A stretch of DNA of 18,053 bases from Deltaproteobacteria bacterium (GTDB lineage Bacteria > Myxococcota_A > Polyangia > Polyangiales > Houyiibacteriaceae): NCBI GenBank assembly GCA_034670305.1, contig JAXMNT010000086.1:1-18053 (forward strand). Reading direction: 5' to 3'. This document shows positions 1 through 15,896 of this stretch, piece by piece (within the stretch, counting starts at the first letter, position 1; the number at the start of each line of letters is the position of its first letter). The position numbers and the translations under genes are program-made. The notes under the pieces are model-generated. The model was not told the DNA's origin. It saw only the letters and a program-made list of their open reading frames with translations, and did no database searches.

Positions 1-124
1 CGCGATGCTCGTCGCGCTGATCAAGCGATCTGACCGCTGATCCGCGGGCAAGGGCAAAGGCAAGGGCAGGGGCAAGGGGCAGGCTGCGAGAACGCCCTGC
101 GGGCGTTCTTCAGCAACCTGCTAG
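1..124 (+). repeat. Left copy of a 124-bp perfect inverted repeat (reverse complement of 17930..18053); probable end of a multicopy element
   Basis: Base-by-base comparison: 1..124 equals the reverse complement of 17930..18053, and identity stops immediately after CTAG (121-124). Contains an ORF tail (2-40), a GGGCAA/GGGCAG tract (about 46-83) and a hairpin (80-120). Confidence 0.97.
2..40 (+). CDS. Partial CDS (3' end only, AMLVALIKRSDR*), probably a four-helix-bundle protein
   Basis: GCG ATG CTC GTC GCG CTG ATC AAG CGA TCT GAC CGC TGA. The AMLxxL C-terminus resembles the internal four-helix-bundle gene (CAMLYKLSR*); both share CGCGATGCTC and end in CCGCTGA. Only 12 codons are visible. Confidence 0.5.
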   Translation, partial: AMLVALIKRSDR

Positions 125-939
125 CGCACCTGCAGGGTGGCGACGGTGGGCCAGACTTCGTCGGTGACGGGTTGCGGCCGGTCGGGGCGGGTGAGGCCGA
201 TGGCGAGGCCGGCGCCGGCGATTGCGAGGGCGACGCCGATCCACAGCCAGGGGGAGCGGCGCACGCGCCGTTCGCTGCCTCGTCCGAGACCGGGTGGTGG
301 CAAGGGAACGACGAGTGAACGATGCGCGCCGGCGGCGAGGTCGATGTTGGTCTCGGCGAACCGTTCGTCGGCGGTCGTCACGGTGACGACGTGGGGGCCG
401 GGGTTCAGACGCGTGGTGCCGAGCACCCGTTCGCCATCCACGCGAACGATGGTGCCGGCGCCGCCGTCGTGTTCGATGCGGAGCTCTGCGACCTGGAGTC
501 TGGCCCGCTCGATGACGCCCTCCGCCTCCGCGCGCCCTTCGGCGCTGAGGGTGCCGAACTCGCCGGTGGTCAACGCGATGAGCACGACCTCGGCGCCGCG
601 CGGGTTGCCCATCGCTTCGAGCACGAGCGCGAGGTTGAACGCGGTGGCGGGGCGGGGCACGTCGGCGAGCGAGTCTTCGAACGCGGTTCGGGCGCGCGCG
701 AGTTGTCCCGCACGCATGGCCTCGACGCCCTCCCGGAAGCGCGTCTGTGCGGAGGCTCCGTCCGCGTGCACCGGGGACGGGAACAGCGTGAGCACAGCTG
801 CGATGGCGAGCACGCACGACGCCGCGGCCGTGGATGCGGCGCGCACTTGGTTTCCGCGCGCGCGTGTCTTCGGCGCAGGTTCCAATGGGCGCACCGCGGT
901 TGCCGAAGACCGCACCCTCAATGTTCGGTCCACGACCAC
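121..939 (-). CDS. TPR-like plus PEGA-like membrane protein (myxobacterial type); start uncertain
   Basis: Hydrophobic N-terminal segment, TPR-like helices (RFREGVEAMRAGQLARARTAFEDS...TAFNLALVLEAMG), PEGA-like beta region (IVRVDGERV...LNPGPHVVTV) and a C-terminal TM (SPWLWIGVALAIAGAGLAIGL). Overlaps the kinase stop, suggesting an operon. Its stop TAG lies within the CTAG at 121-124. Confidence 0.75.
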   Translation of the reverse strand: MVVDRTLRVRSSATAVRPLEPAPKTRARGNQVRAASTAAASCVLAIAAVLTLFPSPVHADGASAQTRFREGVEAMRAGQLARARTAFEDSLADVPRPATAFNLALVLEAMGNPRGAEVVLIALTTGEFGTLSAEGRAEAEGVIERARLQVAELRIEHDGGAGTIVRVDGERVLGTTRLNPGPHVVTVTTADERFAETNIDLAAGAHRSLVVPLPPPGLGRGSERRVRRSPWLWIGVALAIAGAGLAIGLTRPDRPQPVTDEVWPTVATLQVR

Positions 940-2306
940 CCACCGAGCCCGGCCGGCCGATCGGCCATGCCGGTACTGCGTTTGGCGCGGCGTCTCATGC
1001 CACGTCTCGGCGTGCCATCGCGAGGACCCTCGGTGGTGCCGAGGGTCTCGTCCGGGACCTCTTCCATGGTGGAAGAAGTTTGGATGGCATCGGCCGGGAC
1101 CACGACGGTGGTCCGCTGCTCCGTCGCGGACGCGTGCTCGACCGGGGCTTCGACCGCAGCGGTGTCGGCTGTAGGCATCGCGGCGGGCGTCGGCCGATCC
1201 GAATCCGAACTCGAAGTGGATTGTGCAACGACCGCGACGACCAGCGCGCCCGCCACCGCCACCGACGCCAAAGCCGCGACCCCGAGTTTTCCTCGCCAGC
1301 GCTTCGGCGCCACTGCGACGCCCACGGACAACACTGCGGTTCCCGAAGCCAGCACCGTGGCCTCCTCCGCCGCCATCAAGAGCGCGGGCAGATCCTTCTT
1401 CGCGTCGCCGGCGATCTCCTGGACGAACGCGGAGAGGTCGAGCGGCAGATCGTCGAGATCGAGCGCGGCTTCGTGCAGCGCGTCGGCGACCTCTTCGGCG
1501 GTGGCCGGGCGGGCGCCAGGGTCCTTGGCGAGCAAACCGAACAGGAGATCGACCAACGCGAAGGGCACGTCGGTACGGAACTCGCCGATGTCCGGAGGCG
1601 GCTCGTCCAGGATGCGTTCACCCGCCGAGCGGCCGTCCTCGTTTCGGTACAGCCGCTCGCCGCTGAGCGCTTCGAAGAGCAGCACCCCGAACGAGAACAG
1701 ATCGGAGCGCCGGTCCAGCGTTCGGTACTGAAGCTGTTCCGGTGAGAGGTAGCCGAGTTTGCCTTTGAGCACCCCGGTGGCGGTTCGGAGCGAGTGGCCG
1801 TGGGCCTTGGCGATCCCGAAGTCGGTCAGGCGCACGCTGCCGTCGAACCCCAGCAAGATGTTCTGGGGCGAGACGTCTCGGTGCACGAGTCCGAGAGAGA
1901 CGCCGGCTTCGTCGCAGAGTTCGTGTGCCGCGTGCAGACCCCGCGCGACGTCCCTCATGATTTGGAGCACGAGCGGCAGTGGGATGCGCTGCCCGCGCGA
2001 CGCGAGTCGGCCCATCACGACGCGCAGGTCGACCCCGTCGATGTAGTCCATCACGAGGTACGGACCGCGCTCGTCGATGGCGACCTCGTGCACCGCGACG
2101 ACGTTCGGGTGGTGGATCATGCCCGCGAGCCGGGCCTCCTCCAGGAACATCTGCTGGAACTCAGGATCGGAGTGAAGGTGGGGGTGCAACCGTTTGACCG
2201 CGTACGGCCGCCGCACGACGCTGTGGGCCCGCACGCACAGATCCACGAAGCCCATCCCGCCTTCGGCGAGTCGGCAGATCCGTCGAAAGCGTTCGGGGTC
2301 GGGCAC
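918..2306 (-). CDS. Membrane-anchored Hanks-type Ser/Thr protein kinase
   Basis: LAEGGMG, AVK, HRDVSPQNIL, DFG, GKLGYLSPE and DLFSFG motifs, then a TM helix (LGVAALASVAVAGALVVAVVA) and a low-complexity tail. GTG at 2306 chosen as start (the ORF track extends to 2483 but overlaps the divergent gene); TACCCT lies 6 nt upstream. Confidence 0.93.
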   Translation of the reverse strand: MPDPERFRRICRLAEGGMGFVDLCVRAHSVVRRPYAVKRLHPHLHSDPEFQQMFLEEARLAGMIHHPNVVAVHEVAIDERGPYLVMDYIDGVDLRVVMGRLASRGQRIPLPLVLQIMRDVARGLHAAHELCDEAGVSLGLVHRDVSPQNILLGFDGSVRLTDFGIAKAHGHSLRTATGVLKGKLGYLSPEQLQYRTLDRRSDLFSFGVLLFEALSGERLYRNEDGRSAGERILDEPPPDIGEFRTDVPFALVDLLFGLLAKDPGARPATAEEVADALHEAALDLDDLPLDLSAFVQEIAGDAKKDLPALLMAAEEATVLASGTAVLSVGVAVAPKRWRGKLGVAALASVAVAGALVVAVVAQSTSSSDSDRPTPAAMPTADTAAVEAPVEHASATEQRTTVVVPADAIQTSSTMEEVPDETLGTTEGPRDGTPRRGMRRRAKRSTGMADRPAGLGGWSWTEH

Positions 2307-2350
2307 GGGTTCAGGGTAGGGGGTCGGACCCACCGCACGCAATCGCGCGT

Positions 2351-3946
2351 GTGGACCACCCGTCTCGCGACGCGCACCAGGCCTGTACCGTGGTAAGAAC
2401 GTTCGTGGCCGACGAGCAGGGGCGCGAGGCGTACGAGCGGGGACGGGCCGGGGTCCTGGCCGAGGCCGCGCTCCTCGCAGCACTCGACGCAGGTGCGGCC
2501 GCCGAACAGGCCTGGGCCTGCGCGCTCCGTTGGCAGCGTTGGTTCGCCGGCGCGGATGCGCACCCGCCGAACTCGGACGCGCTTCGTTCTTTGAAGGTCG
2601 ACGACGCGTCCGCCCCCGCCCTCGATCGCGTGCTGCATCTCCACGCGCGGGCGCGCTGGTTGGCGCGGGACGCCGCCGCCGCGCGCGAGACGCTGGCCCA
2701 CCACGAGCAAGCGTGTGGCCGCACCATGCGGTGGTTGCTCTCGCGTGCGTGGGTGGAGGTCATGGTGGGCAGCCCGGCGTCCGCTCGCGCCGCCATCGCC
2801 GAACTGCAGGACGCTCCTCGGGCGGTGGAAGCGGAGGTCGTCATCGAAGCGGCGGCGCTCCGAGCGATGGGCGCGGTGCTCGGCGGCGATCTCGAAGAGG
2901 CCGTCTCTGTGGCGCGCCGGGCTTCGCGCATGGCGCGCACCGAGTCGTTTCCGCAGCAAGAGTATCTGGCGAACGTGGTGCTCGCTCGCGTGCGTCGTTT
3001 GTCTGGTCGGCCCTTTCTCGCGGCGCGGATTCTGGGAGTGCTCGACCGGGTCGCGCCGCCTATGTGGCGCAGCTGGATCGGTTGGGAGCGGCTCATGAGC
3101 GGCGACTCGGAAGGCGGTGCGGGCGAGGACCGCCACCACGCGAACGCGCTCGGAGCGTTGCTCGCCGCATTGGCGGAGGGGCGGCCGCCCACGACCGACC
3201 TGCCCCAAGAGGGTCTCTTCGGCACCGACGTGCACACCATCCTGGGCGTGTGTGGGCACACCGATGCGCCGGGATCGGCGGTCGCGCGTTGGCGGAGTGG
3301 CGCGGCGCTCGAGGTGCCGGACGGTCTCCAAGCGCTCGGTGCGACCGATCCCACCGCAGCGGTGGCGCTGGTGGTCGCGCTGCCGGGCGCGCGCGGCACC
3401 CGCGTCCTCGCGCTGAGCCGAGCGGCGCTCGAAGCCCGCGGTCACCGGGAGTTGCCGCCCGCTGCCGGCGCGCAGATGCGCACCGACTCCGCCATCGCGG
3501 AGCTGGCCCTGGCCGGCCCGGACGGGTTGGAGATCGACGACTTCTTCGCGCGGCTCTACGGGTTCGAGTACCGGAACGAACGCCACCGCAGCGTTCGCAA
3601 CATGCTCGTGCATCGGGTGGATCGCCGGCTCGAATCGGTGGGGACCGTCGCCCGGGAGAACGATCGAATTCGTTTGGTGACGGAGCATGCGTTCTTCCTC
3701 TCGGACCCGCGCTGCATCGCGCCGCCCGAAGAGCGTCTGCTCTACGCGGCCGCGGCGTGGGGCGCGCTCTCCTCGCGCAAGGCGGCGGAGCGTCTCGGCA
3801 TGCCGCTCCGCACCGCGCAAGAAGCACTCCGGCGTTTGGCCGAAGACGGCGCGTTCAAGGTCGAGCGGCAGCAGCGCGAGTTCGTGTACTCGCTCGAAGA
3901 CACGACGTTTCAAGAGCCCACCTGGATCGATCGTCTCGACAACTGA
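2351..3946 (+). CDS. Hypothetical regulator-like protein: Ala-rich helical (TPR-like) N-terminus and C-terminal winged-HTH-like domain(s); start uncertain (2351/2390/2405)
   Basis: 531-aa ORF with protein-like composition. C-terminal LSSRKAAERLGMPLRTAQEALRRLAEDGAFKVERQQREFVYSL is HTH plus wing-like, and a second candidate is IDDFFARLYG...SVRNMLVHRVDRRL. Divergent from the kinase. Confidence 0.65.
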   Translation: MDHPSRDAHQACTVVRTFVADEQGREAYERGRAGVLAEAALLAALDAGAAAEQAWACALRWQRWFAGADAHPPNSDALRSLKVDDASAPALDRVLHLHARARWLARDAAAARETLAHHEQACGRTMRWLLSRAWVEVMVGSPASARAAIAELQDAPRAVEAEVVIEAAALRAMGAVLGGDLEEAVSVARRASRMARTESFPQQEYLANVVLARVRRLSGRPFLAARILGVLDRVAPPMWRSWIGWERLMSGDSEGGAGEDRHHANALGALLAALAEGRPPTTDLPQEGLFGTDVHTILGVCGHTDAPGSAVARWRSGAALEVPDGLQALGATDPTAAVALVVALPGARGTRVLALSRAALEARGHRELPPAAGAQMRTDSAIAELALAGPDGLEIDDFFARLYGFEYRNERHRSVRNMLVHRVDRRLESVGTVARENDRIRLVTEHAFFLSDPRCIAPPEERLLYAAAAWGALSSRKAAERLGMPLRTAQEALRRLAEDGAFKVERQQREFVYSLEDTTFQEPTWIDRLDN

Positions 3947-3962
3947 GGTGCGGCACGTGACG

Positions 3963-5072
3963 ATGGGGACGATGCCCGCGACCCGAACCCCGCTCGGCTC
4001 GGCCGGCCTCCTGGTCGCATGGCTGGTCGCATGGCCGGTCGCGGGGCTGGTCGGGTGCAGCTCGAGCGCCGCACCGATCGCGGACGCCGGAGTGGACCAA
4101 GGGTTGACGATCGATGCCGCGCGGACCGACGCGCGCCGCGATGCCCCGCCGGAGATCTGCCCGTGCTTCGAAGGCGACGGCTCGTACTGCGGGGCGGACG
4201 CGGTCGAACGCGCGGCCGCATGGGGCTGCACCCTTCCAGACAGCGGCGACACCGACCTGCTGACCTGCCGAGCCGGGCGCTGGTCGTCGCCGACCCCTTG
4301 TGAACACGGATGCGTCGATGGAGAACCCGGGGGCGCTTCCTGCGATCTCGTGCGGTGCGCGTGTTTCGTCCGCGAGAGCTGGTGCGGCGCGAGCGCGCAG
4401 CGACACGCGCTCACCCTCGACCCGCCGTGCCGGGTTCCGCTCCTCCCAGCACACGAGCACGATCTGCTCGGATGCGACGGACGCCGCTGGATCGTGCTCG
4501 ACGATTGCGAGCTCGGTTGTCACGAAGCGCCAACCGGTCTCGCGGATGCGTGCAACCCAGACGCGTCCCCGGATTACCCCGGCTGGCCCGAGTGTCTGAG
4601 CCGTCCACGCATCGCGTACGGCGTGCACCCCGAAGCGTCCGACCGGCTTCGATGCGCTGGCATCACCTCCGACCGAATCGTGCAGACCATCGGCAGCGCG
4701 CCCGAGTCGGCCGGCGACCACGGCGTGGACGGGACCGCCGCTGGTGGCCAGCCCTACACGGCCGCCATCGATCTGAGCGTCACCGACTTGGACGACGACG
4801 CGATTCGCGGGGAGCTCCAGGCGCTCGGTCAAAACGGCTTCGCGGCCTGGTACCGCGCGCCCGGCGTCGACGGCTGGCCCCCAGACGGCGCCCCCCACAT
4901 CCACGCGGTGTTCGCGGGTGTCCCGATGAAGATCCGTTTGCGCCGACAAGTGCGCGCCTACCTCGCCAACGAAACCGGCCTCACCCCGGAAGAGCCCTAC
5001 CGCTTCTGGACCCCACCCAGAGACGTCCGCGACATCGTCGAGCTCCTCTTCACCCGCAACTACACCCCCTGA
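3963..5072 (+). CDS. Lipoprotein with two Cys-rich repeats and a putative LAS/M15-like Zn peptidase domain
   Basis: Lipobox LVGC after a hydrophobic stretch. Two modules CxC...(Y/W)CG...LLxC...W...CxxGC...C. C-terminal SAGDH...AIDL...GFAAWYR...PHIHAV (H...D...HxH Zn-ligand pattern). Start at 3963 or 3972; the track ORF from 3687 overlaps the previous gene. Confidence 0.7.
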   Translation: MGTMPATRTPLGSAGLLVAWLVAWPVAGLVGCSSSAAPIADAGVDQGLTIDAARTDARRDAPPEICPCFEGDGSYCGADAVERAAAWGCTLPDSGDTDLLTCRAGRWSSPTPCEHGCVDGEPGGASCDLVRCACFVRESWCGASAQRHALTLDPPCRVPLLPAHEHDLLGCDGRRWIVLDDCELGCHEAPTGLADACNPDASPDYPGWPECLSRPRIAYGVHPEASDRLRCAGITSDRIVQTIGSAPESAGDHGVDGTAAGGQPYTAAIDLSVTDLDDDAIRGELQALGQNGFAAWYRAPGVDGWPPDGAPHIHAVFAGVPMKIRLRRQVRAYLANETGLTPEEPYRFWTPPRDVRDIVELLFTRNYTP

Positions 5073-5100
5073 GGACAGGCGAATGACGACGTAGGATGGT

Positions 5101-5384
5101 TCGGCGTCGGCATCGGATTCGGATTCAGCGTCGGCGTCGGGATCGGTATCGGCATCGGCATCGGATTCGGATTCGGCTTCGGCTTCGGATTCGGATTCGG
5201 CTTCGGATTCGGATTCGGCTTCGGATTCGGATTCGGCGTCGGATTCGGGATCGGCTTCGGATTCAGCTGCCGCCACCGCTCCCGCTTCCGCTTCCGCTTC
5301 CGCTTCCGCTCCCGCTTCCGCTTCCGCTTCCGCTTCCGCTTCCGCTTCCGCGCCCGCGACCGCTCCCGCTCCCGCTTCCGCTTC
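5101..5384. repeat. Composite hexamer tandem array: (TCGGAT/TCGGCT/TCGGCG/TCGGCA)n block then (GCTTCC/GCTCCC)n block
   Basis: Directly visible 6-nt periodicity; blocks at about 5101-5265 and 5270-5384. Confidence 0.95.
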
Positions 5385-5402
5385 TTCGTTGGGCGGGTGG
5401 GT

Positions 5403-5530
5403 GCCCGGCGGGTGATCAAGCGTGCCGTCTGGCGGAACAGGCCTCAAGGGGGCCTTCGGCCCGGCGCCTTCGCGCCGCTTCGCCCTTGACCCCTGACCCG
5501 CCAGACGGGGGCGGCCTGCGGCCGCCGGGC
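5403..5530 (+). other. Highly structured leader (nested stems, two inner hairpins) upstream of the four-helix-bundle gene; candidate cis-RNA or ssDNA structure
   Basis: Perfect pairings: 5403-5411/5522-5530 (9 bp), 5425-5435/5498-5508 (11 bp), 5444-5450/5483-5489 (TCAAGGG/CCCTTGA). Inner hairpins GGCC-TTC-GGCC and GGCGC-CTTC-GCGCC. Alternative hairpin GGCGGCC-TGC-GGCCGCC at 5510-5526. Confidence 0.7.
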
Positions 5531-5565
5531 AACGTCGCTCGGTCGTCTTCACACAGGGGTCTCCG

Positions 5566-5880
5566 ATGATCGTTCTACAAACTTCTTTCGAACTCGTGCG
5601 TTCGCTTCGCGCTCAGGTGCTGCCGGCCGTGCGGAAGCACGACGCTTCGCTCGCTTCTCAGATGCAGCGGGCGGCGCAGTCGGTCGTGCTCAACATCGCG
5701 GAGGCTCGGCAGGCGCGGGGGCTGCGTTGCCACGACAAGTTCTCGATTGCGTACGGGGAGTGCAGTGAGCTGAAGGCGGCGATGCAGCTCGCAGAGGTGT
5801 TCGGGTACATCGAACTCGACGCGGGGCTGCTCGACCGGTGCGACCACGTCTGCGCGATGCTCTACAAGCTCAGCCGCTGA
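5566..5880 (+). CDS. Four-helix-bundle protein (23S rRNA IVP / bAvd-like, TIGR02436-type family)
   Basis: 104 aa with family hallmarks LASQMQRAAQSVVLNIAE, FSIAYGECSELKAAMQLA..FGYI and C-terminal AMLYKL. AGGGG SD-like sequence upstream. Confidence 0.9.
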   Translation: MIVLQTSFELVRSLRAQVLPAVRKHDASLASQMQRAAQSVVLNIAEARQARGLRCHDKFSIAYGECSELKAAMQLAEVFGYIELDAGLLDRCDHVCAMLYKLSR

Positions 5881-5886
5881 GGGTGC

Positions 5887-5912
5887 GGCCGGCGTCCATC
5901 TGGGCGCCGGCC
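5887..5912 (+). other. GC-rich hairpin between the four-helix-bundle stop codon and the downstream repeat array
   Basis: GGCCGGCGTCC-ATCT-GGGCGCCGGCC: 11-bp stem with one G-U pair and no U-tract. Confidence 0.6.
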
Positions 5913-6019
5913 GTTCCGCTTCCGCTTCCGCTTCCGCTTCCGCTTCCGCTCCCGCTCCCGCTCCCGCTCCCGCTTCCGCTCCCGCGACCGCTTCCGCGAC
6001 CGCTTCCGTTTCCGCGACC
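5911..6019. repeat. (GCTTCC/GCTCCC/GCGACC)n hexamer array, direct repeat of the 5270-5384 block
   Basis: Same unit and orientation as the upstream block; both contain the variant CCCGCGACCGCT. Confidence 0.95.
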
Positions 6020-6147
6020 TGCCGTTTCACCCCAACAAACACGGGCACGGCCTCCGGTGCCGGCCTCCCGGTCCAGCGCGCAGTGCTCGTTATCGTGGGT
6101 GTGGGTCCGCTTCCTCTAGCTTCCGGGAACTGGCTGAGGAGGTCGAC

Positions 6148-7122
6148 GTGGACAAGAAGAACGTTGGGTTGGGTGTGTGTGTGGCGGTTGTGTTCGGGAT
6201 GGGATGCACCGGGGAGATCCTCGAAATCGATCCCCTCGACCCCGGCTCGGCGCCTGAAGAGGTCTGGCACGAGGGAGAGATCGGCCCCGACGGAGAACAC
6301 ATCGAACACCATCTGGAGCCCCCGCCTGGCGAGGTCTGGCCCGAGTCGCCGGAACAATGGGCGGACGAGGAGACCTTCACGTTCGACGAGATGGACGACG
6401 AGGTCGGCGCGGTCCAGCAGGGGCTCTCGGTCGGTGTGTTCCAGCTCCCCTTCCCTTGTGGACAGGTCTGGGCGGGGTCGACCCGCAGCAGCCATAGCCC
6501 GCAGAACTCGATCGACTTCAACCGCGCGAGCGACTTCGGAGATACGGTCGTCGCGGCCGCTTCGGGCACCGTCTCGGTGGTCGGCAACACCGGGTCGACG
6601 AGTTACGGCCGGTGGGTCGAGATCGACCACGGCGACGGCTACCGCACCCGTTACGCGCACCTCAACAGTGTCTCGGTCTCGCGCGGCCAGCGATTGTCCC
6701 GCGGCCAGCGGCTCGGCACGGTCGGAAGCACCGGCGGTTCGACCGGCCCGCACCTGCACTACGAACTCCGCCGCTACGGAACCGCGCTGCGTCCGGTCTT
6801 CAACGGCAGCCGCGCGTACTACTTCGGCACGCGCAGCTACCGAAGCACGAACCGCTGTTCGACCTCCACGTCCGGAGCCAACGGCACCGTGCGGACCTCC
6901 GGTGTGGCCCTGACCGTGCGCAGTGGCCCAGGCACTGGCTACCGCGCCGTCGGCACGGTCTCCAACGGGCAGCGCCTTCGGATCCGCTGCCACAAGACCG
7001 GAAGCCGGGTCAACGGAACCTACGGCTCCTCGCGCCTCTGGGACTACATCGGCACCGGCTACGTCTCGGACGCCTACGTCTACACCGGCTCGGACGGTCG
7101 CGTCGCCCGCTGGTGCGACTGA
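6148..7122 (+). CDS. M23 family metallopeptidase with C-terminal SH3b-like domain; lipoprotein with acidic N-terminal region
   Basis: GAGGAGG RBS (6136-6142) before GTG; lipobox-like GMGC. M23 motifs H(SPQNSI)D, VVAAASGTV, YGRWVEIDHG, YAHL, VGSTGGSTGPHLHYE. SH3-like LTVRSGPGTGYRAVG...GYVSDAYV. Confidence 0.92.
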   Translation: MDKKNVGLGVCVAVVFGMGCTGEILEIDPLDPGSAPEEVWHEGEIGPDGEHIEHHLEPPPGEVWPESPEQWADEETFTFDEMDDEVGAVQQGLSVGVFQLPFPCGQVWAGSTRSSHSPQNSIDFNRASDFGDTVVAAASGTVSVVGNTGSTSYGRWVEIDHGDGYRTRYAHLNSVSVSRGQRLSRGQRLGTVGSTGGSTGPHLHYELRRYGTALRPVFNGSRAYYFGTRSYRSTNRCSTSTSGANGTVRTSGVALTVRSGPGTGYRAVGTVSNGQRLRIRCHKTGSRVNGTYGSSRLWDYIGTGYVSDAYVYTGSDGRVARWCD

Positions 7123-7140
7123 AGGCTCGCGGCGACCGAC

Positions 7141-7187
7141 AAAAGAGAAACGGCCGGCACCCTTTCGGATGCCGGCCGCTTCATTTT
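7141..7187. terminator. Probable bidirectional intrinsic terminator between convergent genes
   Basis: Stem CGGCCGGCA (7151-7159) / TGCCGGCCG (7170-7178), flanked by AAAAGAGAAA and CTTCATTTT. Confidence 0.8.
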
Positions 7188-7212
7188 GGAACGACGGTTG
7201 TGAGTGGAGCCG

Positions 7213-8547
7213 TTAGCGGCTGGTGAAGACGAAGGGGTAGCGGACCGAGGTGACGCCTTCGGTCTGCGGGAAGGACCAGCGGGAGACCGACTGCGCGACG
7301 CACTGGCCGACCCGGTCCGTCATGCCGCCGGCGGGGGTGGCGACCGAGGAGCGGACGCTGCCGTCTTGGCTGACGAGGAACTGCACTTCGACGCGGCCGG
7401 CCAGGTCGGGGCGGCTCTGGAGCTGCTGGCTGTAGCAGTGAAGCACTTCGGGGCGGTGGCGGCGGACGACGCGGAGGATGTCGTTGCGGCTGAGTCCACC
7501 GACGGTCCGCACGTTGGTCGTGTAGTCCATGTGCGGCACGACGTCGGGGCGGTCGCGGCCCGGTCCGAGGTCGCCGGTGCCGGGGGCACCCGGGCGGCCG
7601 TTCTGTCCGGGGCGGTCCATGAGGCGGGTCAGTCGCGCCACGCCGTCGCCGCAGTGGTCACCGGTACAGGTGCCGACGCCGGCGTGGGTCATGTCGAGTC
7701 CACCGAAGTTGCCGTCGCCGCCAGGAATGCCCGCGAGCGCCATCCAGCTGCGGCCGTCATCGGCCAGGCTGTTGAACGGGGAGCCGGCGTCGGCCGGGCG
7801 GAGCAGGCCGGCCATGTGGCGCAGGGCCGCGAAGGTGCCGAGGTTGTTCACGTCGCTGGCGGTGGTGGCCACCGGGCGTTCGCCGCGGCGCATGGGCGTG
7901 CGGCCAGGGTTCGCGACCGGGCCGGGCTCTCCGTCGCCGCCCGTCGGGGAGGCTTCACCGGCTTCGCCGTCGCCGCCGCCGGTCGAGTTCTGCGCCGGGA
8001 CCTCGGGCGGGTTCTCACGGGCGATCGACTGCAGCTCGTAGCGCAGGTACTCGACCCGGTCGTGGTCGATGTCGAGCGAGAGCGCCGACGCGTTCGGTGG
8101 CGCGAGCATCAGCAGGCCGATGAGGAGCAGCGCGAAGGCGAAGGTGCCCGCCAGCATGCGACCGAAGGTGCGGTCGAGTGTGATCGGCGCGCGGGGCGTG
8201 GTCGGGGTCGCTTCGGTGGTGCGGACGGTGAAGCGGAAGTCGCCGATGCGGACTTCGCAGACCATGCCGGCTTCGAGCACGAGCGGCGCGTCCGTGGTCA
8301 GCGTCTCGTCGCCCCGGCTGGCCACCAGGGTGGCGCCGAGCAGCTGCGAGCCGTCGACCACCCAGCCCCGCTCGTCGCGGGAGGCGAGGGTGAGGCGGCG
8401 GCTGACCACCTCGGCGGGAAGCAGGAAGGTCGAGTCGGCTTCGCCCACCGTGATCGCCCCCTCTTTCCGCAGCTCCTGAGCGAGGGGGGTGCCCTCCCAG
8501 CTCATGATGACTTCCAGTTCCGTTTCGTTGTGTGCTTCGTGCGTCAT
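7213..8547 (-). CDS. AgmX/PglI C-terminal domain (TonB-C-like) membrane protein, GltG-like architecture
   Basis: Cytoplasmic beta-rich N-terminus, TM (AFALLLIGLLML), Gly-rich linker, and C-terminal GGLSRNDILRVVRRHRPEVLHCY...LAGRVEVQFLVSQDGSV...VGQCV...WSFP...VRYPFVF. GGAG RBS upstream. Confidence 0.85.
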   Translation of the reverse strand: MTHEAHNETELEVIMSWEGTPLAQELRKEGAITVGEADSTFLLPAEVVSRRLTLASRDERGWVVDGSQLLGATLVASRGDETLTTDAPLVLEAGMVCEVRIGDFRFTVRTTEATPTTPRAPITLDRTFGRMLAGTFAFALLLIGLLMLAPPNASALSLDIDHDRVEYLRYELQSIARENPPEVPAQNSTGGGDGEAGEASPTGGDGEPGPVANPGRTPMRRGERPVATTASDVNNLGTFAALRHMAGLLRPADAGSPFNSLADDGRSWMALAGIPGGDGNFGGLDMTHAGVGTCTGDHCGDGVARLTRLMDRPGQNGRPGAPGTGDLGPGRDRPDVVPHMDYTTNVRTVGGLSRNDILRVVRRHRPEVLHCYSQQLQSRPDLAGRVEVQFLVSQDGSVRSSVATPAGGMTDRVGQCVAQSVSRWSFPQTEGVTSVRYPFVFTSR

Positions 8548-8595
8548 GTTCCGTCTCCGTCGTTCCGGGCCGTGTTGGCCTCAGGGACATGACAT

Positions 8596-8612
8596 TGCGA
8601 CAGCCGTGCCAA
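8596..8612 (-). promoter_or_regulatory. Sigma54 (-24/-12) promoter for the AgmX/PglI-domain gene
   Basis: Minus strand reads TTGGCACG-GCTG-TCGCA, matching TGGCACG-N4-TTGCW with one mismatch, 48 nt upstream of the ATG at 8547. Confidence 0.75.
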
Positions 8613-8741
8613 GCCAGAGTTCCTTGAAATCATTGGGAACTTTCCGCCATGACGGATGTCGCGGGTCGAAAAACCCGTGTGGGTTTGTGGAAACGCAGTG
8701 CTCGTGACGCGTCCCGTTACGCGAAACAGTTACGCTGCCGC

Positions 8742-9272
8742 ATGGCCCCTCCGAAGCTGATTTTCCGCGTCGAAACGAACGATCTGGCGGGGTTTCTGGC
8801 CCACGCCCTCACGGAAACGGAGCTGGAGGGCCAGCTCGCGATCGAAGGGGTCGATCCCTTCGTGCCGGCGGGAACCACGGTGGCGGCGGCGCTGGATCAG
8901 CTGGGGGCGTTGCCAGGCTTCGCGATCGAGCGGGCAGATGAGGCGCTGAGCGTCTGGGCGGAACAACCCGACGCCGACGTGGATCCGATGGGTGCCGACA
9001 TCGATTTTGTGACCAGCCTGCTCGAGCTGGCCGCCGATCGGGGCGCGCGCGGGTACCTGCATCTGATGCACGTCCTGATCGCGCACGACGAAGTGGAGCA
9101 CGCGCACCTGCGTGCGCAGGACGGGATCTGCGAAGAACAGATCGAAGCGCCCGCGATGGTGGAAGAGGTGTGGGCGCGGTTCGAGGCCCGCGGGGTTTGG
9201 CCGGTCGCGGAGGATCTGCACCACTGGCTGGACGATCCGGATCCGATCGACGAAGTGGTGGAAGTGGACTGA
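8742..9272 (+). CDS. Hypothetical acidic protein (176 aa)
   Basis: Protein-like composition in the gap between genes. ATG at 8742 is preceded by TACGCT plus 5 nt (track ORF starts at 8649). No recognisable family. Confidence 0.65.
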   Translation: MAPPKLIFRVETNDLAGFLAHALTETELEGQLAIEGVDPFVPAGTTVAAALDQLGALPGFAIERADEALSVWAEQPDADVDPMGADIDFVTSLLELAADRGARGYLHLMHVLIAHDEVEHAHLRAQDGICEEQIEAPAMVEEVWARFEARGVWPVAEDLHHWLDDPDPIDEVVEVD

Positions 9273-9282
9273 GCCCGCCGCG

Positions 9283-9438
9283 GCCCCTGCCGCGGCCCTT
9301 GCCCCTGCCCTTGCCCCTGCCCTTGCCCTCCGAAAGCGAAGCGGAAGCGGAAGCAGAAGCGGAAGAAGCCGAAGCCGATCCCGAAGCCGACCCCGAAGCC
9401 GACCCCGAAGCCGATCCCGACCCCGATCCCGACCCCGA
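9283..9438. repeat. Composite hexamer array: (GCCCCT/GCCCTT)n, (GAAGCG)n, (GAAGCC/GATCCC/GACCCC)n
   Basis: 6-nt periodicity fills almost the whole gap between convergent stops at 9272 and 9452. Confidence 0.93.
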
Positions 9439-9451
9439 GAAGACCGATGCG

Positions 9452-10519
9452 TTACGGGGTCGCGGGCTGAGCGGCGGCCGGCTGGGCGGCGGGAGCGGCG
9501 GGAGCGGCGGCGGGAGCTTCTGCTTCGACGGGCTGGAGATCCGCGATGCGGACCATGCCGCGCATGGCGACCTGGTCGTTTACGGCGACGAAGAGGTCGA
9601 CCTCTTGGGTGTCCTCGTAGCGGTTCATCTCCCGGCCGTACCCGGCTTCCGCGAGGATGCCGACGGTGTTGCCGTCGAACCGGATGCGGGTGTCGGGGGC
9701 CAGGCGCCAGAGCGGTTTGTCGGCTTCGGCGCGCAAGCGACTGGGCACACCGGTGGCGCCAGCGGCGAACACCGTGTCTTCGCCGGGGTCGGCGAGCTCG
9801 ACGTTCACGTAGCCGATCAAGTACGGGCCTTCGCCGACGCGGACGCCCTTCCAGGTGCCACGGTCGCGCAGGACTTCGACGCGCGTGCCCGGCTCGAGCG
9901 CGGGGAGCGTGGTGATGACTTCGCGGGGGGTCGCGTGGAGCGGCACTTCTTGGCCAGCCGGCAAGCGGAAGGTCTCGCCCGTGCTCAGCGGCGTGGCGTT
10001 CGCGGGCACGTCGCCCGCCGTGAGTGCCGTCATGGCGAATGTGCCGGTGTGGCCACTGCCGAAGATCTGATCGGCGAACCGCGGGAGCGCTTCGACGCGC
10101 GCCAGCCCTTCCACCGCGTCGGGCGAGACGAAGCGGACCAGGTCGCCCGGGCCGACGTAGGCCGGCGTGCCTTCGATCTTGCCGGGCTCCGTCACCCGCA
10201 GCGCGAGTCGTTCGGCGCTGATCCACGCGCGCACCTTCAAGGCACCGCGGATCCGCACCGGCAGGCGACCGTTCTGAGGGGCGCCCCGGGTCTCGATCGC
10301 CACGTTGGGCGAGACGTATCCGAGCGCGGGCGCGTCGGCGGACTCGGAGAGGAAGAGGGCCGGCCCGGTGCCGTAGCCAGTCACGAATTCGGTCGGCCAA
10401 CGCTCGTCGTTGGCGGCCGAGGCGGCGCCTTCGCCGTTCGCAGTGGTGGAGACATCGGTGCTGGCGGGCGTGCACGCCGCGGCCAGCAGGAGAACAGAGA
10501 GAAGTCCGCGTAGAGTCAT
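9452..10519 (-). CDS. Lipoprotein with several SH3-like beta domains
   Basis: MTLRGLLSVLLLAAAC lipobox. SH3-like segments (LFLSESADAPALGYV...RLPVRI...VRAWI and VPLHATP...GTRVEVLRDRGTWKGVRV...LIGYV). Ala/Pro tail. Domain call is by eye. Confidence 0.7.
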   Translation of the reverse strand: MTLRGLLSVLLLAAACTPASTDVSTTANGEGAASAANDERWPTEFVTGYGTGPALFLSESADAPALGYVSPNVAIETRGAPQNGRLPVRIRGALKVRAWISAERLALRVTEPGKIEGTPAYVGPGDLVRFVSPDAVEGLARVEALPRFADQIFGSGHTGTFAMTALTAGDVPANATPLSTGETFRLPAGQEVPLHATPREVITTLPALEPGTRVEVLRDRGTWKGVRVGEGPYLIGYVNVELADPGEDTVFAAGATGVPSRLRAEADKPLWRLAPDTRIRFDGNTVGILAEAGYGREMNRYEDTQEVDLFVAVNDQVAMRGMVRIADLQPVEAEAPAAAPAAPAAQPAAAQPATP

Positions 10520-10677
10520 GGAGTCGTCGGGATAGCCCAACCACCGCATCCCGGGCAAGGTCCCGGCATGGTCGAGCGCGCGCTCAGCCACCGAAGACCG
10601 TCAAGTTCGCTCTACTTTGCCACACTCGAGGTGGAAGCCGAGCATCGGGCGGTGGCCATCCCGGCGACCGCACGTCG

Positions 10678-10698
10678 GGGTCCGAAGGCCTCGGACCC
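10678..10698. other. Short perfect inverted repeat just downstream of the 10705..11466 gene
   Basis: GGGTCCGA-AGGCC-TCGGACCC with no U-tract; function unknown. Confidence 0.35.
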
Positions 10699-10704
10699 GT
10701 TCGC

Positions 10705-11466
10705 TCAGCGGTAGCGGACCCGGAGTCGAACGCCGAGGTTGCTGGCGATTTGTTGTGCGATCGACCGCGGGATGCGGTCGAGTCGGTCTTCCACCACCGC
10801 CCGGGCGCGGGCGTGCGGCTCGCCCTTGAGGGCCGGCAGCACGATTTGGGACCAGCGCAACAGCGTCTTGCCGTTCGCGCCCTCGAGCGCGAGGGTCAGC
10901 ACCGGCTCGAGGCGTTTCTGGTAGGCGACCGACGCGGTGCACAGGTTCGCGAAGGTGCGCACCAGTCCGTCTTTGCCGTCCTCCAGTGTGGGTTCGAAGG
11001 CGGCTTTGAGCGTGTCGAGGTGTTTGGCGACGCGCGCCGGCGCGATCTTCGCGATGGCCGGGAGCGCATCGGCGGAGGTCTGCACCACCCGCTTGTGTTT
11101 GGACGTGATGCCCTGCGCGAACTTGTCGACGTGGCCCTGCAAGAGCTCCGGCTTGTCGTTGACGAGTTCGTGGAGAATGCGCGCCGCTTTGGTCGCGGTC
11201 GTCGAGCGGGGGTCGAGCAACAGAGCGGCTTGTTCCGCCACCTGCGCGGCGGTGTCGTCCGCATCGATCAGAGCCGCTGCAGCCGCGCCGGCACCCGACT
11301 TCGGCTTGTCGTCTTCGACCGGCGCTTCCACCGCGGCGGCCGCAGCCTTCGCCGCCTTCGCGGGCTTGGTCGACTTCTTCGCCTTCTTGGCCGCAGCCGA
11401 CGCCTTCTTGGCCTTCTTGGCCGGGGCTTTCTTGGTGCTGCTCTTGGACGTCTTCTTCGCGGCCAT
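10705..11466 (-). CDS. Protein with Lys/Ala-rich histone-H1-like N-tail and HEAT/ARM-like helical domain
   Basis: AGGAG RBS; MAAKKTSKSSTKKAPAKKAKKASAAAKKAKK...; then amphipathic helical repeats (ALPAIAKIAPARVAKHLDTL; LVRTFANLC). TAGGAT -10-like box at 11521-11526 (minus strand). Confidence 0.8.
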   Translation of the reverse strand: MAAKKTSKSSTKKAPAKKAKKASAAAKKAKKSTKPAKAAKAAAAAVEAPVEDDKPKSGAGAAAAALIDADDTAAQVAEQAALLLDPRSTTATKAARILHELVNDKPELLQGHVDKFAQGITSKHKRVVQTSADALPAIAKIAPARVAKHLDTLKAAFEPTLEDGKDGLVRTFANLCTASVAYQKRLEPVLTLALEGANGKTLLRWSQIVLPALKGEPHARARAVVEDRLDRIPRSIAQQIASNLGVRLRVRYR

Positions 11467-11611
11467 GTCTCTCCTCTGTCTCCTGCGTCGTGCCGGGACC
11501 CGAGCGCAGAATGGGGTGTCATCCTACCTGGGCGCGCTGCCCACGGGAAGGAACGGTTTGGCCCCCGCGGTTTGGCCTGAGTGCTTGGCGGCCCCAGTCA
11601 GTGGAACGGCC

Positions 11612-13528
11612 TCAGCGGAGGTTTCTTAGCAGCTGGGCGGCGTCTTGCAGCGCTTGGTTGCTGTCGGCACCACCGAGCCCGGTCGAATTGTTCGGCCCGG
11701 CGGGTGCCCCGCCGCCTGGCACCGGGCCGCCGAGCCCGGGGATCGCCCCGCCCCCGAGCCCCTGCGTCATCTGCTGGAGCAGGTTCTGAAGGTTGCCGAT
11801 CGTCTGACCGCCGCCGAGCCAGTCTGCGGTCATCTGCCCCATGTCGGCCTGGCCCAGGTCCTCGTCTCCGTGGGTCTCCTCGAGCCACCGACGTTCGAGC
11901 CGCCGCACCCGGGCGCGGTGCCGGCCGCGGGCGAGCTCGTCGAAGAGCGCGCGGGGCGGAGCGACGGCGAACCGGTTGCGTCCGACGTAGCGCTGGACCC
12001 CCGCGAAGAACTGCCGGTCGCCCACCACCTCTCGGATGCGTTCGTACGCGAAGGCGCCCTTGCCGTAGACGAGCCCGGCGTACGCCATCTCGTTCTGGAA
12101 CCCGTCCACCGGCTGGTCGACCGCGGCATCCGCCGCGCCGGTCATGCGCATCATGTGGTAGTTCGACGCCACCTGCCGGCGCGCTTCCTGGTCGGCGCGC
12201 TCGTTCCCGTGCCGTTCGCGCATGTAGAGGATCGAGCTGAACTGGGCGAGCGACTCGTCGACGAATGGGTGTCGGCGCGCGTCGCTGCCGACCACGCCAT
12301 GCCACCACTGGTGCGCGACTTCGTGCGCGACGACGAACTCGAGCATGGACTCCCGCATGCCGCCGCCATTGGTGTTGCCTGAGGATCGCAAGAGGCTTCC
12401 GACGACCCCGAGGCCCATGCCCCCGCCCGAGCCATAGAACATCTTCGCGAGCGTCACGAGTCCGCTGAACTCGACTCCGCCGGCACCGCCGACGAGCGGG
12501 GCCTCCACGAGATCCAGATCGAGGTAGGGGTACCGGCCGAAACGGCGCTCGTAGATCTCGAGCGCGGCTGCCGCGGCGTCGAGCGCGGCCCGTCCATCGG
12601 TGGCGTCGGCCGGCAGATGCCAGCTCCGCACCGTGACGCCCGAGACCTCGCGCTCTTGCACATCGAACTGGGGACTGACGATCGCCGCGAAGTTCCGGCT
12701 GAGCCCCGCCACCGCGACGACTTCGTGGTGCGCGGGCCGGCCGGACTGGCCAAGCAGTGTCTCTTCCCGAACGACCGTTCCGCTGATGGCGACGCGCGAC
12801 CCTTGGGCACAACGGACGCGGGCGCGGAAGTGCGAGAGCCCACCCGCGCCGAGGTCGCCCATGGTGCTCGCGTCGGAGGTCACCCACGCGCCGTCCCGGC
12901 GGTCGGCCAGCATCGCGTAGAAGTTGCCGAGCGATGCGATGCCGCCGCTCTCTGCGAGCAGGCCGTATTCTCCGTGGAGGTTGCCGGACCCGCCGCTGAG
13001 ACGGGTCATGCCTTCCATCGCCTGCGCCATCATCCCGGTTCGGGTGGGATCGATGTGTTGCAGGGTGGCGCGCAGCTGAAGCCGGATGCGGAGCCGGCCG
13101 CCGGGTGCGACCGGGTGCTCGGGATGGATCAGGATCGTGCTGCGTCCATCGAACTCGACTTGGCAGTTCGTGCCGACGCATTCGGAGCCGGTGAGCCGGA
13201 CCCGCGGTTCGGTGCCCACCGCGTTCGCGTAGATGCGCAGGGCGACGTCCGGCAGGGTCTCGGTGCTGGTGTTCGTGAACCAGACGTCTTCCTGCGCCTG
13301 CATCTCTCGCTGATCGTCGGACAGGCGGATGTCGAGGTCGTAGAGCGGGAGGGTGTCGAGGCCGGCCGGCGCATACTGCGCCGCTTCGCGTCGATCTTCG
13401 GGCCGGAGGTTGCGCAGCAGCGGCGCGGCTTCGTACCACTGGGTCTGCGCGTCTGCGGTCTCGTCGCATCCGGTGCTGCCCCCGAAGAGGAGCGCCGCGA
13501 GGAGGAGCGGAGTGAACATGGAGCGCAT
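11612..13528 (-). CDS. M1 family Zn aminopeptidase, probable lipoprotein
   Basis: HEVAH-x18-E (HEVAHQWWHGVVGSDARRHPFVDE), GAMEN-equivalent GGVEF, and VYGKG Tyr motif. Signal with STGC. Start ATG at 13528 (or 13519), with TATTCT 7 nt upstream. Confidence 0.92.
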   Translation of the reverse strand: MRSMFTPLLLAALLFGGSTGCDETADAQTQWYEAAPLLRNLRPEDRREAAQYAPAGLDTLPLYDLDIRLSDDQREMQAQEDVWFTNTSTETLPDVALRIYANAVGTEPRVRLTGSECVGTNCQVEFDGRSTILIHPEHPVAPGGRLRIRLQLRATLQHIDPTRTGMMAQAMEGMTRLSGGSGNLHGEYGLLAESGGIASLGNFYAMLADRRDGAWVTSDASTMGDLGAGGLSHFRARVRCAQGSRVAISGTVVREETLLGQSGRPAHHEVVAVAGLSRNFAAIVSPQFDVQEREVSGVTVRSWHLPADATDGRAALDAAAAALEIYERRFGRYPYLDLDLVEAPLVGGAGGVEFSGLVTLAKMFYGSGGGMGLGVVGSLLRSSGNTNGGGMRESMLEFVVAHEVAHQWWHGVVGSDARRHPFVDESLAQFSSILYMRERHGNERADQEARRQVASNYHMMRMTGAADAAVDQPVDGFQNEMAYAGLVYGKGAFAYERIREVVGDRQFFAGVQRYVGRNRFAVAPPRALFDELARGRHRARVRRLERRWLEETHGDEDLGQADMGQMTADWLGGGQTIGNLQNLLQQMTQGLGGGAIPGLGGPVPGGGAPAGPNNSTGLGGADSNQALQDAAQLLRNLR

Positions 13529-13661
13529 GGGCGGGAGAATAGCGCCCCTGCCGCCGCGCCGCGAACGCAGAGGCGATCCGCACCTGCGTTTCCAAAGGAC
13601 AACACTGGGTTTCGCCTTGGCGCCGCGTAACGAAGACGCAGGGTTCGCAGTACGCTCCGGC

Positions 13662-15503
13662 ATGCGCACCCCCATTTTCTTCTTGGTCGCAGGGTTGGCC
13701 GCCTGTGGCGGCACACCCGTCTCGGGACCAGGCACGACAGCGGCCTCGTCGTCGGGGTCGATCGAGTGGCAGGCGTTCGGCGCGGACGCATTCGCCGAAG
13801 CGGAGCGGGACGGGAAACTCCTCCTGGTCGACGTGGGCATCGAAGGCTGCACCGCGTGCCGCTGGATGGCGGAGGCGACCTACACCCATCCGGACGTCGT
13901 CGCGCGGGTGAACGCGCACTTCGTTCCTGTCGCGGTCGACGCCAACCTCCGGCCCGACCTCGGCGAGCGCTGGTCGCGTTGGGGCTGGCCGGCCACGATC
14001 GTGCTCTCCCCCTCCGGCGAGCAACTCTTCGCGGTCCGAGGCAACAAGCGGCCCCGCAACTTCGTCCCCCTCCTCGATCAGATCCTCACCGCGCGCGCGG
14101 ACGGCACCCTGCGGCCCGAGATGGATCCGTTGCCCGACGCGGCGCCGGAGGGCGCAGTGGAACTCAGCTGCCGCGAAGTGAACGACGCGCTGGAGTCGCG
14201 CCGCGCGGCGCTCGGATGGGACGGAGGGTTTCTGATGGTGCGCGGCGCACCGCTCGCCCATGAGTTTCTGCGCCACGACACCCGCGGCGCGGATCTCGAG
14301 CACGCACTCGGCACTGCGGAGGCATTCCAGCGCCTGCTCGATCCGGTTTGGGGTGGTGTGTTCGTGGCCGGACGAGAAGCGGACGGCGGGTTTCAGGTGA
14401 TTGCCGAGAAGCGGGTGCTGCACAACGCGGCGGCCCTGCACGCGTTCGCGCGTCTCCACGCGCTTCATGGGGACCCGGGTTCGCGGCAGGCGGCCGAAGA
14501 GATCCACCGCTACCTCGCCGACTGGATGACCGCCCCGGACGGGACGTTCTACGCCACGCAGGAAGACGACGCGCCGGGCCTCCCGTCGGGCATGCGGGCC
14601 GCGGACTACTACGCACTTCCCGACGCCGAGCGGCGCGCCCTGGGCATCCCGCCGATCGACCACGCCGTCTACACGGACTTGAACGGCCGCATGATCGAAG
14701 CGTACGCCAACGCCTTCATCGTCCTGCGCGACCCGCGGTACCTCGACGCGGCGAGGCGCGCGACCGAGACGCTCCTGCAGGATCGCGTGAGCGCCGATGG
14801 ATGGATTCGGCAGACCGCGCCCACCGACGCGGTGGCCTCCGACGATCGCATGCGCGACTTCGAGGCGGGCGCGGGCGGTCCCTACCTGGCGAGCCAGGCC
14901 TGGATGCTCGTCGCGACCCTCGCGGTCTACGACGCGACCTTGGAGCCGGTCTTCTTGGAGGCGGCGACGGGGATCGCAGATGCGTCGCTGGCGGCGCTTC
15001 GGCATGAACACGGCGCTCTGCTGGCGGGCCCGCCGGACCCTTCGACCGAACGCCTCGCGCCGAGGTTCCCCGTCGAAGACAACGCGGTGATGGCGCGCGG
15101 GTTGGTGCGGCTGGCGGCGTTCACCCACGAAGCGCGATACCGCGCCGAAGCCGAAACCATTCTGCGCGCCGTCGCGCCGCCAGGCGCGCTGACCCGACGC
15201 GGCGCCAACGTGCAGGCGGAAGCCGCGCTCGCGTTCGAACACCTGCTGCTCGGGCCCCTGGAAGTCAGCATCGTCGCCGACCCCGACGACCCCGACGCGG
15301 CCGCGCTCTTCGAGGCTGCGATGCAAGTGCGGTCGAGCCGGCGCGTCGTGCACTTCGAGCCGGACGGACGCTACCCGCGGCAAGCGCACCCGATCCTGCA
15401 CGTGTGCAGCAACGTCGCGTGCTCGAGCCCGATCGCCGACCCGAACCGAGTCCAGGAAGTCGCCGCCCAGCTCGCGCGGGTGGAGGGCGGCGCGTGCGAG
15501 TGA
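13662..15503 (+). CDS. YyaL/SSP411-like (DUF255) thioredoxin-domain protein with lipoprotein signal
   Basis: [15 protein letters not shown] lipobox; [23 protein letters not shown] (CxxC); [54 protein letters not shown]-terminal [10 protein letters not shown]. Confidence 0.92.
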
Positions 15504-15509
15504 GGTAGA

Positions 15510-15810: not shown

Positions 15811-15896
15811 GAGAGGGTGTGCGGTGCCCGTGCCCGTGGTTCTCCCGACTCTCCTGCGCGGTGGTCCCTCCGGCGGGCCGTGCTAGGTGGGGCGGC

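Follow-up and report, generated by a model that had tools for sequence, protein, structure and literature searches.

What kind of unit is a gene for a 104-amino acid (aa) protein that lies, together with a structured leader and a hairpin, between two arrays of the same hexamer? The question is raised by positions 5101-6019 of the 18,053-nucleotide (nt) window analysed here, i.e. the whole stretch of contig JAXMNT010000086.1 (positions 1 to 18,053, forward strand) of the Deltaproteobacteria bacterium assembly GCA_034670305.1 (Polyangiales, Houyiibacteriaceae). The first-pass annotation of this DNA had proposed a compact element which inserts into, recombines through or generates hexamer arrays by means of an enzyme encoded elsewhere, and all the features that it listed (arrays, leader, 104-aa open reading frame (ORF), hairpin and second array) were found where it had placed them. 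The evidence described below makes it probable that the locus is one copy, of a subfamily termed A, of a ∼0.5-kb non-autonomous, repeat-associated insertion cassette, which resembles the ORF-bearing intervening sequences (IVS) found in 23S rRNA as well as miniature inverted-repeat transposable elements (MITEs).

The genome (7.93 Mb in 105 contigs; G000 in the locus names used here) contains 47 matches to PF05635, the family of the 104-aa protein; 39 of them exceed the cut-off, and several are located at the ends of contigs. BLASTN with 5385-5910 as query recovers seven further near-full-length copies of 86-92% identity from this genome, besides ∼20 more matches at 66-70% and leader-only pieces. 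By translation, the intact copies fall into subfamilies A (that of the window; 8 intact and 1 truncated), B (13) and C (12), all encoding 103-104 aa, and a fourth subfamily, D, is N-terminally decayed. The subfamilies have a common build, which consists of an array, often a small 'cap' hairpin, a 136-nt leader, the ORF, a hairpin and again an array. The cap, an additional module that comprises two small hairpins and separates the array from the leader, is found in 5 of the 8 full subfamily-A copies and in 12 of the 13 of subfamily B. Similarity among the nine subfamily-A copies extends from the leader (window ∼5399) to directly after the 3′ hairpin, beyond which there are tandem arrays only; in the closest copy pairs, too, the shared sequence stops at the arrays, with no relation between the flanks. 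The copies are dispersed, with the same ends and unrelated flanks, and the proposal of a compact cassette (∼0.5 kb) without an enzyme of its own is upheld by this multi-copy occurrence with reproducible ends. A co-directional gene lies upstream of the A, B and C cassettes in 21 of 29 scorable cases, and 2 cassettes lie between divergent genes.

The genome is unusually rich in period-6 repeats, as evident from 1,583 rows of Tandem Repeats Finder (TRF) output that merge into 1,228 arrays with a total of 153 kb, and the background array rate therefore matters. A period-6 array is present within 500 bp upstream of 38 of the 47 family matches as compared to 10.6% of 4,502 crude gene calls, and within 500 bp downstream of 28 of the 47 as compared to 19.3%. 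Arrays on both sides within the same distance accompany 21 of the 47 matches vs 2.4% of the gene calls, and an array on either side 45 of the 47 vs 27.6%. The expectation that genes of this family are repeat-flanked more often than other genes is thus borne out.

The unit and the strand of the arrays are, moreover, specific to each cassette subfamily. Upstream of subfamily A, GCT(T/A)CC-type units are found on the sense strand in 7 of 9 copies and in the opposite orientation in none, and related GCTNNC-type units, again on the sense strand, are flagged downstream in 5 of the 9, with shorter arrays visible in others. In subfamily B, the units are of NNCAGC type upstream and of TTCGGC type downstream, and subfamily C has CCGANG-type units upstream. 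The commonest array type near ordinary genes displays little strand bias, with 175 vs 146 arrays downstream and 60 vs 54 upstream.

At the window locus, a distal upstream array (TTCGGN)n (5100-5253, + strand, ∼25 units; TRF row 5100-5348, period 6, 0% indels) forms the first half of a composite array type. It is followed by a proximal array (GCTNCC)n (5254-5384, + strand, 21.8 units, 85% matches and 0% indels by TRF) on the sense strand of the cassette. The downstream array (GCTNCC)n (5914-6015, + strand, 17 units) has the orientation of the upstream one, and the two (GCTNCC)n arrays, direct repeats of each other as first described, have in common the variant CCCGCGACCGCT at 5353-5364 and 5981-5992. 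The same composite of (TTCGGN)n and (GCTTCC)n recurs without a cassette at 9277-9438 and 15510-15810 in reverse-complement orientation, so that the cassette of the window is embedded in the (GCTNCC)n portion of a composite array type that occurs more than once. Of the earlier remark that the other arrays of the window have the same layout, the composite organization holds, and the strand is reversed.

The structured leader (5399-5534, + strand, 136 nt) was examined with two covariance models, R1, built from subfamily A alone, and R2, built from subfamilies B and C without A, which it matches with 137.9 and 105.3 bits, respectively. Its architecture is modelled as a closing stem around a long stem carrying an invariant UCAAGG/CCUUGA helix with two hairpins, i.e. 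a three-way junction. The predicted fold of the window leader has a free energy of −106.5 kcal mol−1 (z = −3.08), and 1 of 200 shuffles is as good. RNAalifold gives 50 pairs for subfamily A, of which 8 have compensatory changes, at a mean column identity of 90%. A MAFFT alignment of the three subfamilies gave no common structure, as the stem registers differ, and covariance-model alignments were used instead. One of these (A4) was excluded as it contained reverse-strand matches of the 8 subfamily-A copies, and three leaders with insertions of 70-80 nt (C28, C68 and C10:56795) were left out of the model seeds.

R1 aligns the leaders of subfamilies B and C end to end at 34-56 bits. When the 21 B and C leaders are laid on the structure derived from A, 88.0% of the cells form a standard pair as compared to 32-44% with the partners slid, and 29 of the 50 pairs have changed on both sides. 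The covariation score of 0.357, as compared to 0.115 for the highest slid control, is reached by 0 of 500 shuffles. G-U pairs, which are frequent here and in the comparison across genera described below, assign the structure to the sense strand, in line with an RNA transcribed with the ORF, and the leader is most likely RNA. No Rfam 15 family reaches its gathering threshold anywhere in the 18-kb window, leader included. Judged from these alignments, the leader is a new conserved structured element with compensatory changes and a fixed place before the gene.

Two further observations concern the leaders of this genome. The 70-80-nt insertions lie at loop positions (C28:6881-6984, C68:36119-36200 and the C10:56795 locus), and both subfamily-B ones carry the same inserted sequence. 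Leader matches also occur without an adjoining PF05635 match at G000:C22:10038-10173, C1:200929-201068 and C54:5127-5278, as solo or degenerate cassettes.

The arrangement was then compared with 40 genomes of relatives (those named below as G002, G012, G013 and G033). The R2 search revealed 11 leader matches in 6 of the 40, and 9 of the 11 sit 13-49 nt upstream of a same-strand family ORF. A short-period array with units of 6, 7, 12 or 18 nt is present within ∼100 nt upstream of 10 of the 11, the eleventh leader starting 40 nt from a contig end. Downstream, most of these loci also show a GC hairpin together with a further array. The array units are unrelated to those of the window's genome; in G033, the two flanking arrays are mutually inverted. 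When the 11 leaders are aligned with three from the window's genome, 88.6% of the cells of the 14 sequences pair as compared to 40-49% with the partners slid. Across these genera, 38 of the 50 pairs have changed on both sides, with a covariation score of 0.515 that is well separated from the highest slid value of 0.124 and is reached by 0 of 500 shuffles. The family copy number in the 40 relatives ranges from 0 to 31. A scan of named genomes gave one relative, a locus in a named Myxococcota metagenome-assembled genome with 39% identity and a heptamer array upstream, without a full leader match.

The link between cassette and arrays holds in array-poor genomes as well and can therefore not be put down to a single genome rich in arrays. 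In G033, a 400-kb sample contains 5 period-6 arrays of at least 40 bp, while all 5 leader loci are array-flanked; of the arrays in the sample, one lies next to a family ORF of weak score (26.7 bits, under the cut-off) and another next to the G033-type cap. G012, a complete genome of 9.07 Mb with 31 family matches and no leader match, has a period-6 array within 400 bp of 19 of the 20 family loci examined, against a background of 13 arrays in a 400-kb sample. The whole arrangement is conserved across genera.

Several relatives (G012 at L119, L120 and L125; G002; G013) also contain convergent pairs of family genes that are separated by ∼80-100 nt and have arrays on both outer sides. At least 2 of the 13 arrays in the G012 sample encode acidic protein tails: at locus L155 (G012:C1:7300001-7320000), the period-6 arrays at 2987-3123 and 4048-4192 lie in coding sequence and form the tails of two adjacent genes which, read from their translations alone, look like ScpA and ScpB. 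The arrays of these genomes are consequently not all intergenic.

Proteins of PF05635/TIGR02436 are frequently found in bacterial genomes, where they often occur in multiple copies, and to our knowledge they have no known function outside diversity-generating retroelements (DGR). The cassette ORF (5566-5880, + strand, 104 aa, ATG start), the frame of which is supported by the phase of GC content at third codon positions (GC3), matches PF05635 with 56.5 bits (cut-off 33.8; residues 2-100 on profile positions 4-105 of 106) and TIGR02436, the 23S rRNA intervening-sequence protein family, with 58.7 bits (cut-off 24). Both scores agree with the identity first assigned, and the product is predicted to be a four-helix-bundle protein of the PF05635 family. 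The only solved relative by sequence is XCC0516 (PDB 2GSC; E = 2.2e-5, residues 8-98), and PADLOC gave no match for the cassette protein. Pairwise comparison within the subfamilies gave a ratio of nonsynonymous to synonymous divergence (dN/dS) of 0.093 at dS 0.53 for the 8 copies of A, 0.134 at dS 0.45 for B and 0.060 at dS 0.63 for C. The cassette ORFs, 33 of which are intact in the three subfamilies, are under purifying selection and the protein is maintained; the dS values of 0.45-0.63 also mean that these copies are not recent. The ORFs at C10:56795 and C46:27803 are identical in 309 of 309 bases, yet the two copies are 94% identical over 560 nt and their flanks are unrelated, which suggests gene conversion between cassette copies.

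Signs of mobility come from derivatives of the cassette. The ORF-less ones at C18:54400-54600 and C68:17800-17900 retain the 5′ end, the 3′ hairpin and their flanking arrays. Subfamily D provides the clearest such signs. The genome contains 505 units of (CCCTTG)4-5.5, and neighbouring 33-bp units are inverted less than 1 kb apart in 65 pairs, as compared to 5 pairs in the opposite arrangement. BLAST searches revealed dozens of these to be internal-deletion derivatives of a 538-bp gene-bearing D element in which both ends are kept, mostly at 90-99% identity, and the D ends extend into conserved flanking hairpins. With respect to their retained ends, the D derivatives are MITE-like. The contig of the window itself starts and ends with 33-bp units of this kind, (GGGCAA)5.5/(CCCTTG)5.5, at 46-78 and 17976-18008.

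A number of observations weigh against a mobile cassette, or against parts of the mechanism considered below. The counts of arrays near family genes overstate independence, as the family copies are kin, and the gene calls used as background are crude, the home-made caller covering 76% of the genome. The covariation alignments were fitted to the structure of the model, which favours pairing, and the slid controls share this bias in part only. As many as 1,505 of the 1,583 period-6 array rows (∼95%) have no family gene within 400 bp, and with 78 rows near one the cassette does not account for arrays in general. Insertion into one pre-existing array, as first envisaged, fits the copy of the window; in subfamily B, in contrast, the two flanking arrays differ in unit and a single split array is no explanation, nor does it suit G033 with its inverted arrays.

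The copy alignment of subfamily A shows no terminal inverted repeats, whereas D has the inverted 33-bp hexamer units. Target duplications in D are not above those of shuffled flank pairs, and none is recognizable in A, where the flanks are tandem repeats and a duplication is therefore not readable. No empty orthologous site was seen, the protein encoded upstream (3963-5069) having a full-length match in 0 of the 40 relatives; its best matches share 47-49% identity with the C-terminal half of the query only. Contigs of the window from 4 public sequencing runs of one study stop at the arrays (4300-5178 and 6020-7000) and bridge nothing, and no RNA run containing the window is listed. The joints in these runs, short-sided and located inside repeats, are uninformative, and no empty-site or excision junction was found. 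The cassette neither encodes nor is linked to a transposase, recombinase or reverse transcriptase, and binding of the protein to arrays or leader is put forward as a candidate activity. Finally, the A, B and C copies are old (dS ∼0.5) and every intact one appears to be selected, which equally fits a maintained host gene family.

An immobile, maintained gene family with a regulatory leader is, indeed, the main rival explanation. The paralogues would be resident and have a host job such as RNA binding or chaperoning, regulation or defence, the leader would be a cis-regulatory 5′ untranslated region (UTR), and the arrays would be by-products or regulatory spacers inherited via old duplications. 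Strong purifying selection on 33 intact copies at dS 0.45-0.63 speaks for such a family, as does a leader whose covariation resembles that of regulatory 5′ UTRs and which precedes the ORF by 13-49 nt at 9 of 11 relatives' loci, and neither a linked movement enzyme nor an empty site was found. Against it stand copies at unrelated loci with homology ending at the arrays, copies at contig breaks, ORF-less derivatives with both ends, and dozens of MITE-like D derivatives, mostly 90-99% identical over the retained ends. Forty-seven copies of one small gene would also be unusual for a housekeeping role, and a copy number that varies from 0 to 31 among the 40 relatives likewise counts against this rival. 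The immobile family is regarded as rather unlikely.

A more specific mobile element, a non-autonomous palindrome-associated unit like those of IS200/IS605, would be acted upon in trans, as single-stranded DNA, by a genomic HUH (Y1) transposase and inserted beside a short motif supplied by the arrays. Hairpins at or near both ends, the lack of terminal inverted repeats and of target duplication, and an orientation strictly locked to the array strand are consistent with it, and the genome does contain 11 Y1_Tnp genes. These, however, constitute 11 copies of a separate IS-like unit of ∼1 kb (contigs C20, C31, C38, C68, C1, C11, C59, C14, C55, C15 and C63 of G000), which encodes 230-245 aa and has long, nearly perfect inverted ends of its own that bear no relation to those of the cassette. 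The Y1 units do not share the 3′ hairpin, and only 3 of the 11 genes have any hexamer array within 600 bp. An RNA role is a better match for the G-U pairs of the leader and for its fixed position ahead of the ORF. An HUH enzyme as the mover, which the first-pass annotation had considered, has no support here, and the explanation as a whole appears very unlikely.

The same annotation had also considered a reverse transcriptase as the outside enzyme, in which case an Avd-like protein would partner the enzyme and the arrays would result from repeated copying of a short template. The family does resemble Avd, according to the portion of PMC10053308 that was accessible, and the array units vary by substitution without indels. 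However, the genome has 47 family genes vs three reverse transcriptases (RVT_1 matches at G000:C23:86418, C10:168437 and C67:18832), none of which is in the window and for all of which the best model is PADLOC retron type XIII; none is of DGR type, and the variable unit positions are not confined to adenines. The link to a reverse transcriptase was therefore rejected, and a retroelement accessory is extremely improbable. No more credible is a chance co-location of cassettes and arrays in the permissive long intergenic regions of an array-rich genome, for although arrays are abundant here and, like the cassettes, favour gene 3′ flanks (19.3% downstream vs 10.6% upstream), their unit type and strand are subfamily-specific and the link persists in G033 and G012, where arrays are rare.

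The interpretation as a repeat-associated insertion cassette is, therefore, retained. Under this interpretation, the cassette is an expression module in which a three-way-junction leader, a four-helix-bundle protein gene and a GC-rich hairpin are embedded in short-period tandem arrays. It appears to have reached dozens of intergenic sites, at present or formerly, most of which follow a co-directional gene, and would be able to move. A functional tie between arrays and cassette is the best-supported account of their association, and the arrays may be cis sites of the cassette which bind the oligomeric protein, or act as a homology and slippage substrate for copying by recombination or gene conversion, or both. 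A bolder version, in which each protein clade would read its own repeat unit and its own leader RNA, can also be envisaged. Protein, leader and arrays would then together be a transposase-free, self-propagating element, copied between arrays by repeat-templated recombination and seeding or maintaining part of the hexamer microsatellites (∼2% of the genome), with the rRNA IVS as one special case; this is a distinctly speculative proposal and, as it stands, quite unlikely to be correct in full.

The remaining parts of the locus and its surroundings are as follows. A G-rich junction between array and leader (5385-5398, + strand) is delimited by the subfamily-A alignment, and the copy of the window has no 'cap' hairpin module. 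The linker between leader and ORF (5535-5565, + strand), conserved within subfamily A, contains GGGG, a purine-rich stretch for ribosome binding that is placed 8 nt ahead of the ATG. The 3′ hairpin (5887-5912, + strand), with an 8-bp GC stem, a variable loop and no T-run after it, is the right end of the conserved unit; among the subfamily-A copies, the stem is conserved and the loop varies. A simple scan of the + strand from 5000 to 6200 gave no sigma-70-like promoter and no T-run terminator, and the 3′ hairpin was not called an intrinsic terminator by it. The hairpin was also considered as a genome-wide element of the repetitive extragenic palindromic (REP) kind and rejected as such, since almost all of 31 regular-expression matches (palindromes being counted on both strands) are subfamily-A copies.

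Both flanking genes, 3963-5072 and 6148-7122, are on the + strand by GC3 phase analysis, and a profile match identifies the downstream one as an M23 peptidase with an SH3 domain. Just 3′ of this gene, at 7152-7177, there is a hairpin with a GC stem nearly that of the cassette 3′ hairpin, which is probably the terminator-like hairpin of the peptidase gene. The empty composite array at 15510-15810 ends (15780-15815) in the reverse complement of the 'cap' hairpin module, and the (TTCGGN)n arrays may have grown from TTCGGA repeats of the cap itself. The (UUCGGN)n array at 5137-5252 gave weak Rfam matches resembling miRNA precursors at chance level (E 0.28-3.4), because UCGG pairs with itself via C-G and G-U pairs; such pairing would concern RNA of the + strand only.

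No paper was found in the literature on stand-alone PF05635/TIGR02436 genes with flanking repeats, nor on such cassettes under the heading of hexanucleotide repeats in myxobacteria. The genome paper of Geobacter metallireducens, in its accessible part, describes other multicopy heptamer elements and does not mention the PF05635 family. A figure legend in PMC10910872, a source available in part, lists '23S rRNA IVP' among CRISPR-linked genes; as a matter of speculation, this label might stem from arrays of the present kind taken for CRISPR arrays. The almost constant array neighbourhood of a multi-copy cassette points to an undescribed kind of insertable element. The family is now tied to a covariation-supported, RNA-like leader absent from Rfam, to lineage-specific tandem arrays and to MITE-like derivatives, from which testable hypotheses follow on protein-repeat recognition, protein-leader recognition and recombination-based spread.

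When compared with known systems, the cassette shares features with several and differs from each. The flanking arrays are ordinary-looking period-6 repeats with substitution variants, like the long simple-sequence repeats and hexanucleotide microsatellites of prokaryotes; unlike these, a subset of the arrays is tied by unit and strand to a gene cassette, and this across genera despite changed units. The cassette may account for some of the hexamer microsatellites, which are unusually dense in this myxobacterial lineage. The resemblance to the bAvd protein of DGR lies in a homologous four-helix-bundle fold family, the relation of Avd to PF05635 and the family link to the 23S IVS being stated in the accessible part of PMC10053308. 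The closest solved relative in the present case is, as mentioned, XCC0516, and the cassette differs from a DGR in that it has no adjacent reverse transcriptase and no template/variable repeat pair, in a genome without a DGR-type reverse transcriptase.

Like MITEs, the cassette is small, intergenic and multi-copy, its internal-deletion derivatives keep both ends, and subfamily D has inverted terminal units. Unlike in MITEs, inverted termini are lacking in subfamily A, neither a target duplication nor a cognate transposase was identified, and the cargo gene is under purifying selection in every copy. A further parallel is provided by the ORF-bearing IVS in the 23S rRNA genes of Leptospira, Coxiella and others, which carry an S23p/PF05635 ORF and are small, sporadic, insert-like units without an enzyme of their own, bounded by structured sequence. 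The cassette agrees with them in protein family, in its small insert-like form without an enzyme, in its structured bounds and in its sporadic distribution. It differs in its position between protein-coding genes rather than in rRNA (no Rfam match was obtained in the 18-kb window), in a conserved 136-nt leader and in dozens of copies per genome. Its flanks at the window locus are direct tandem hexamer arrays and not an inverted-repeat stem, although subfamily D and G033 do have inverted flanks. The present analysis also suggests a broader class of insertable cassettes of which the classical rRNA intervening sequences are members.

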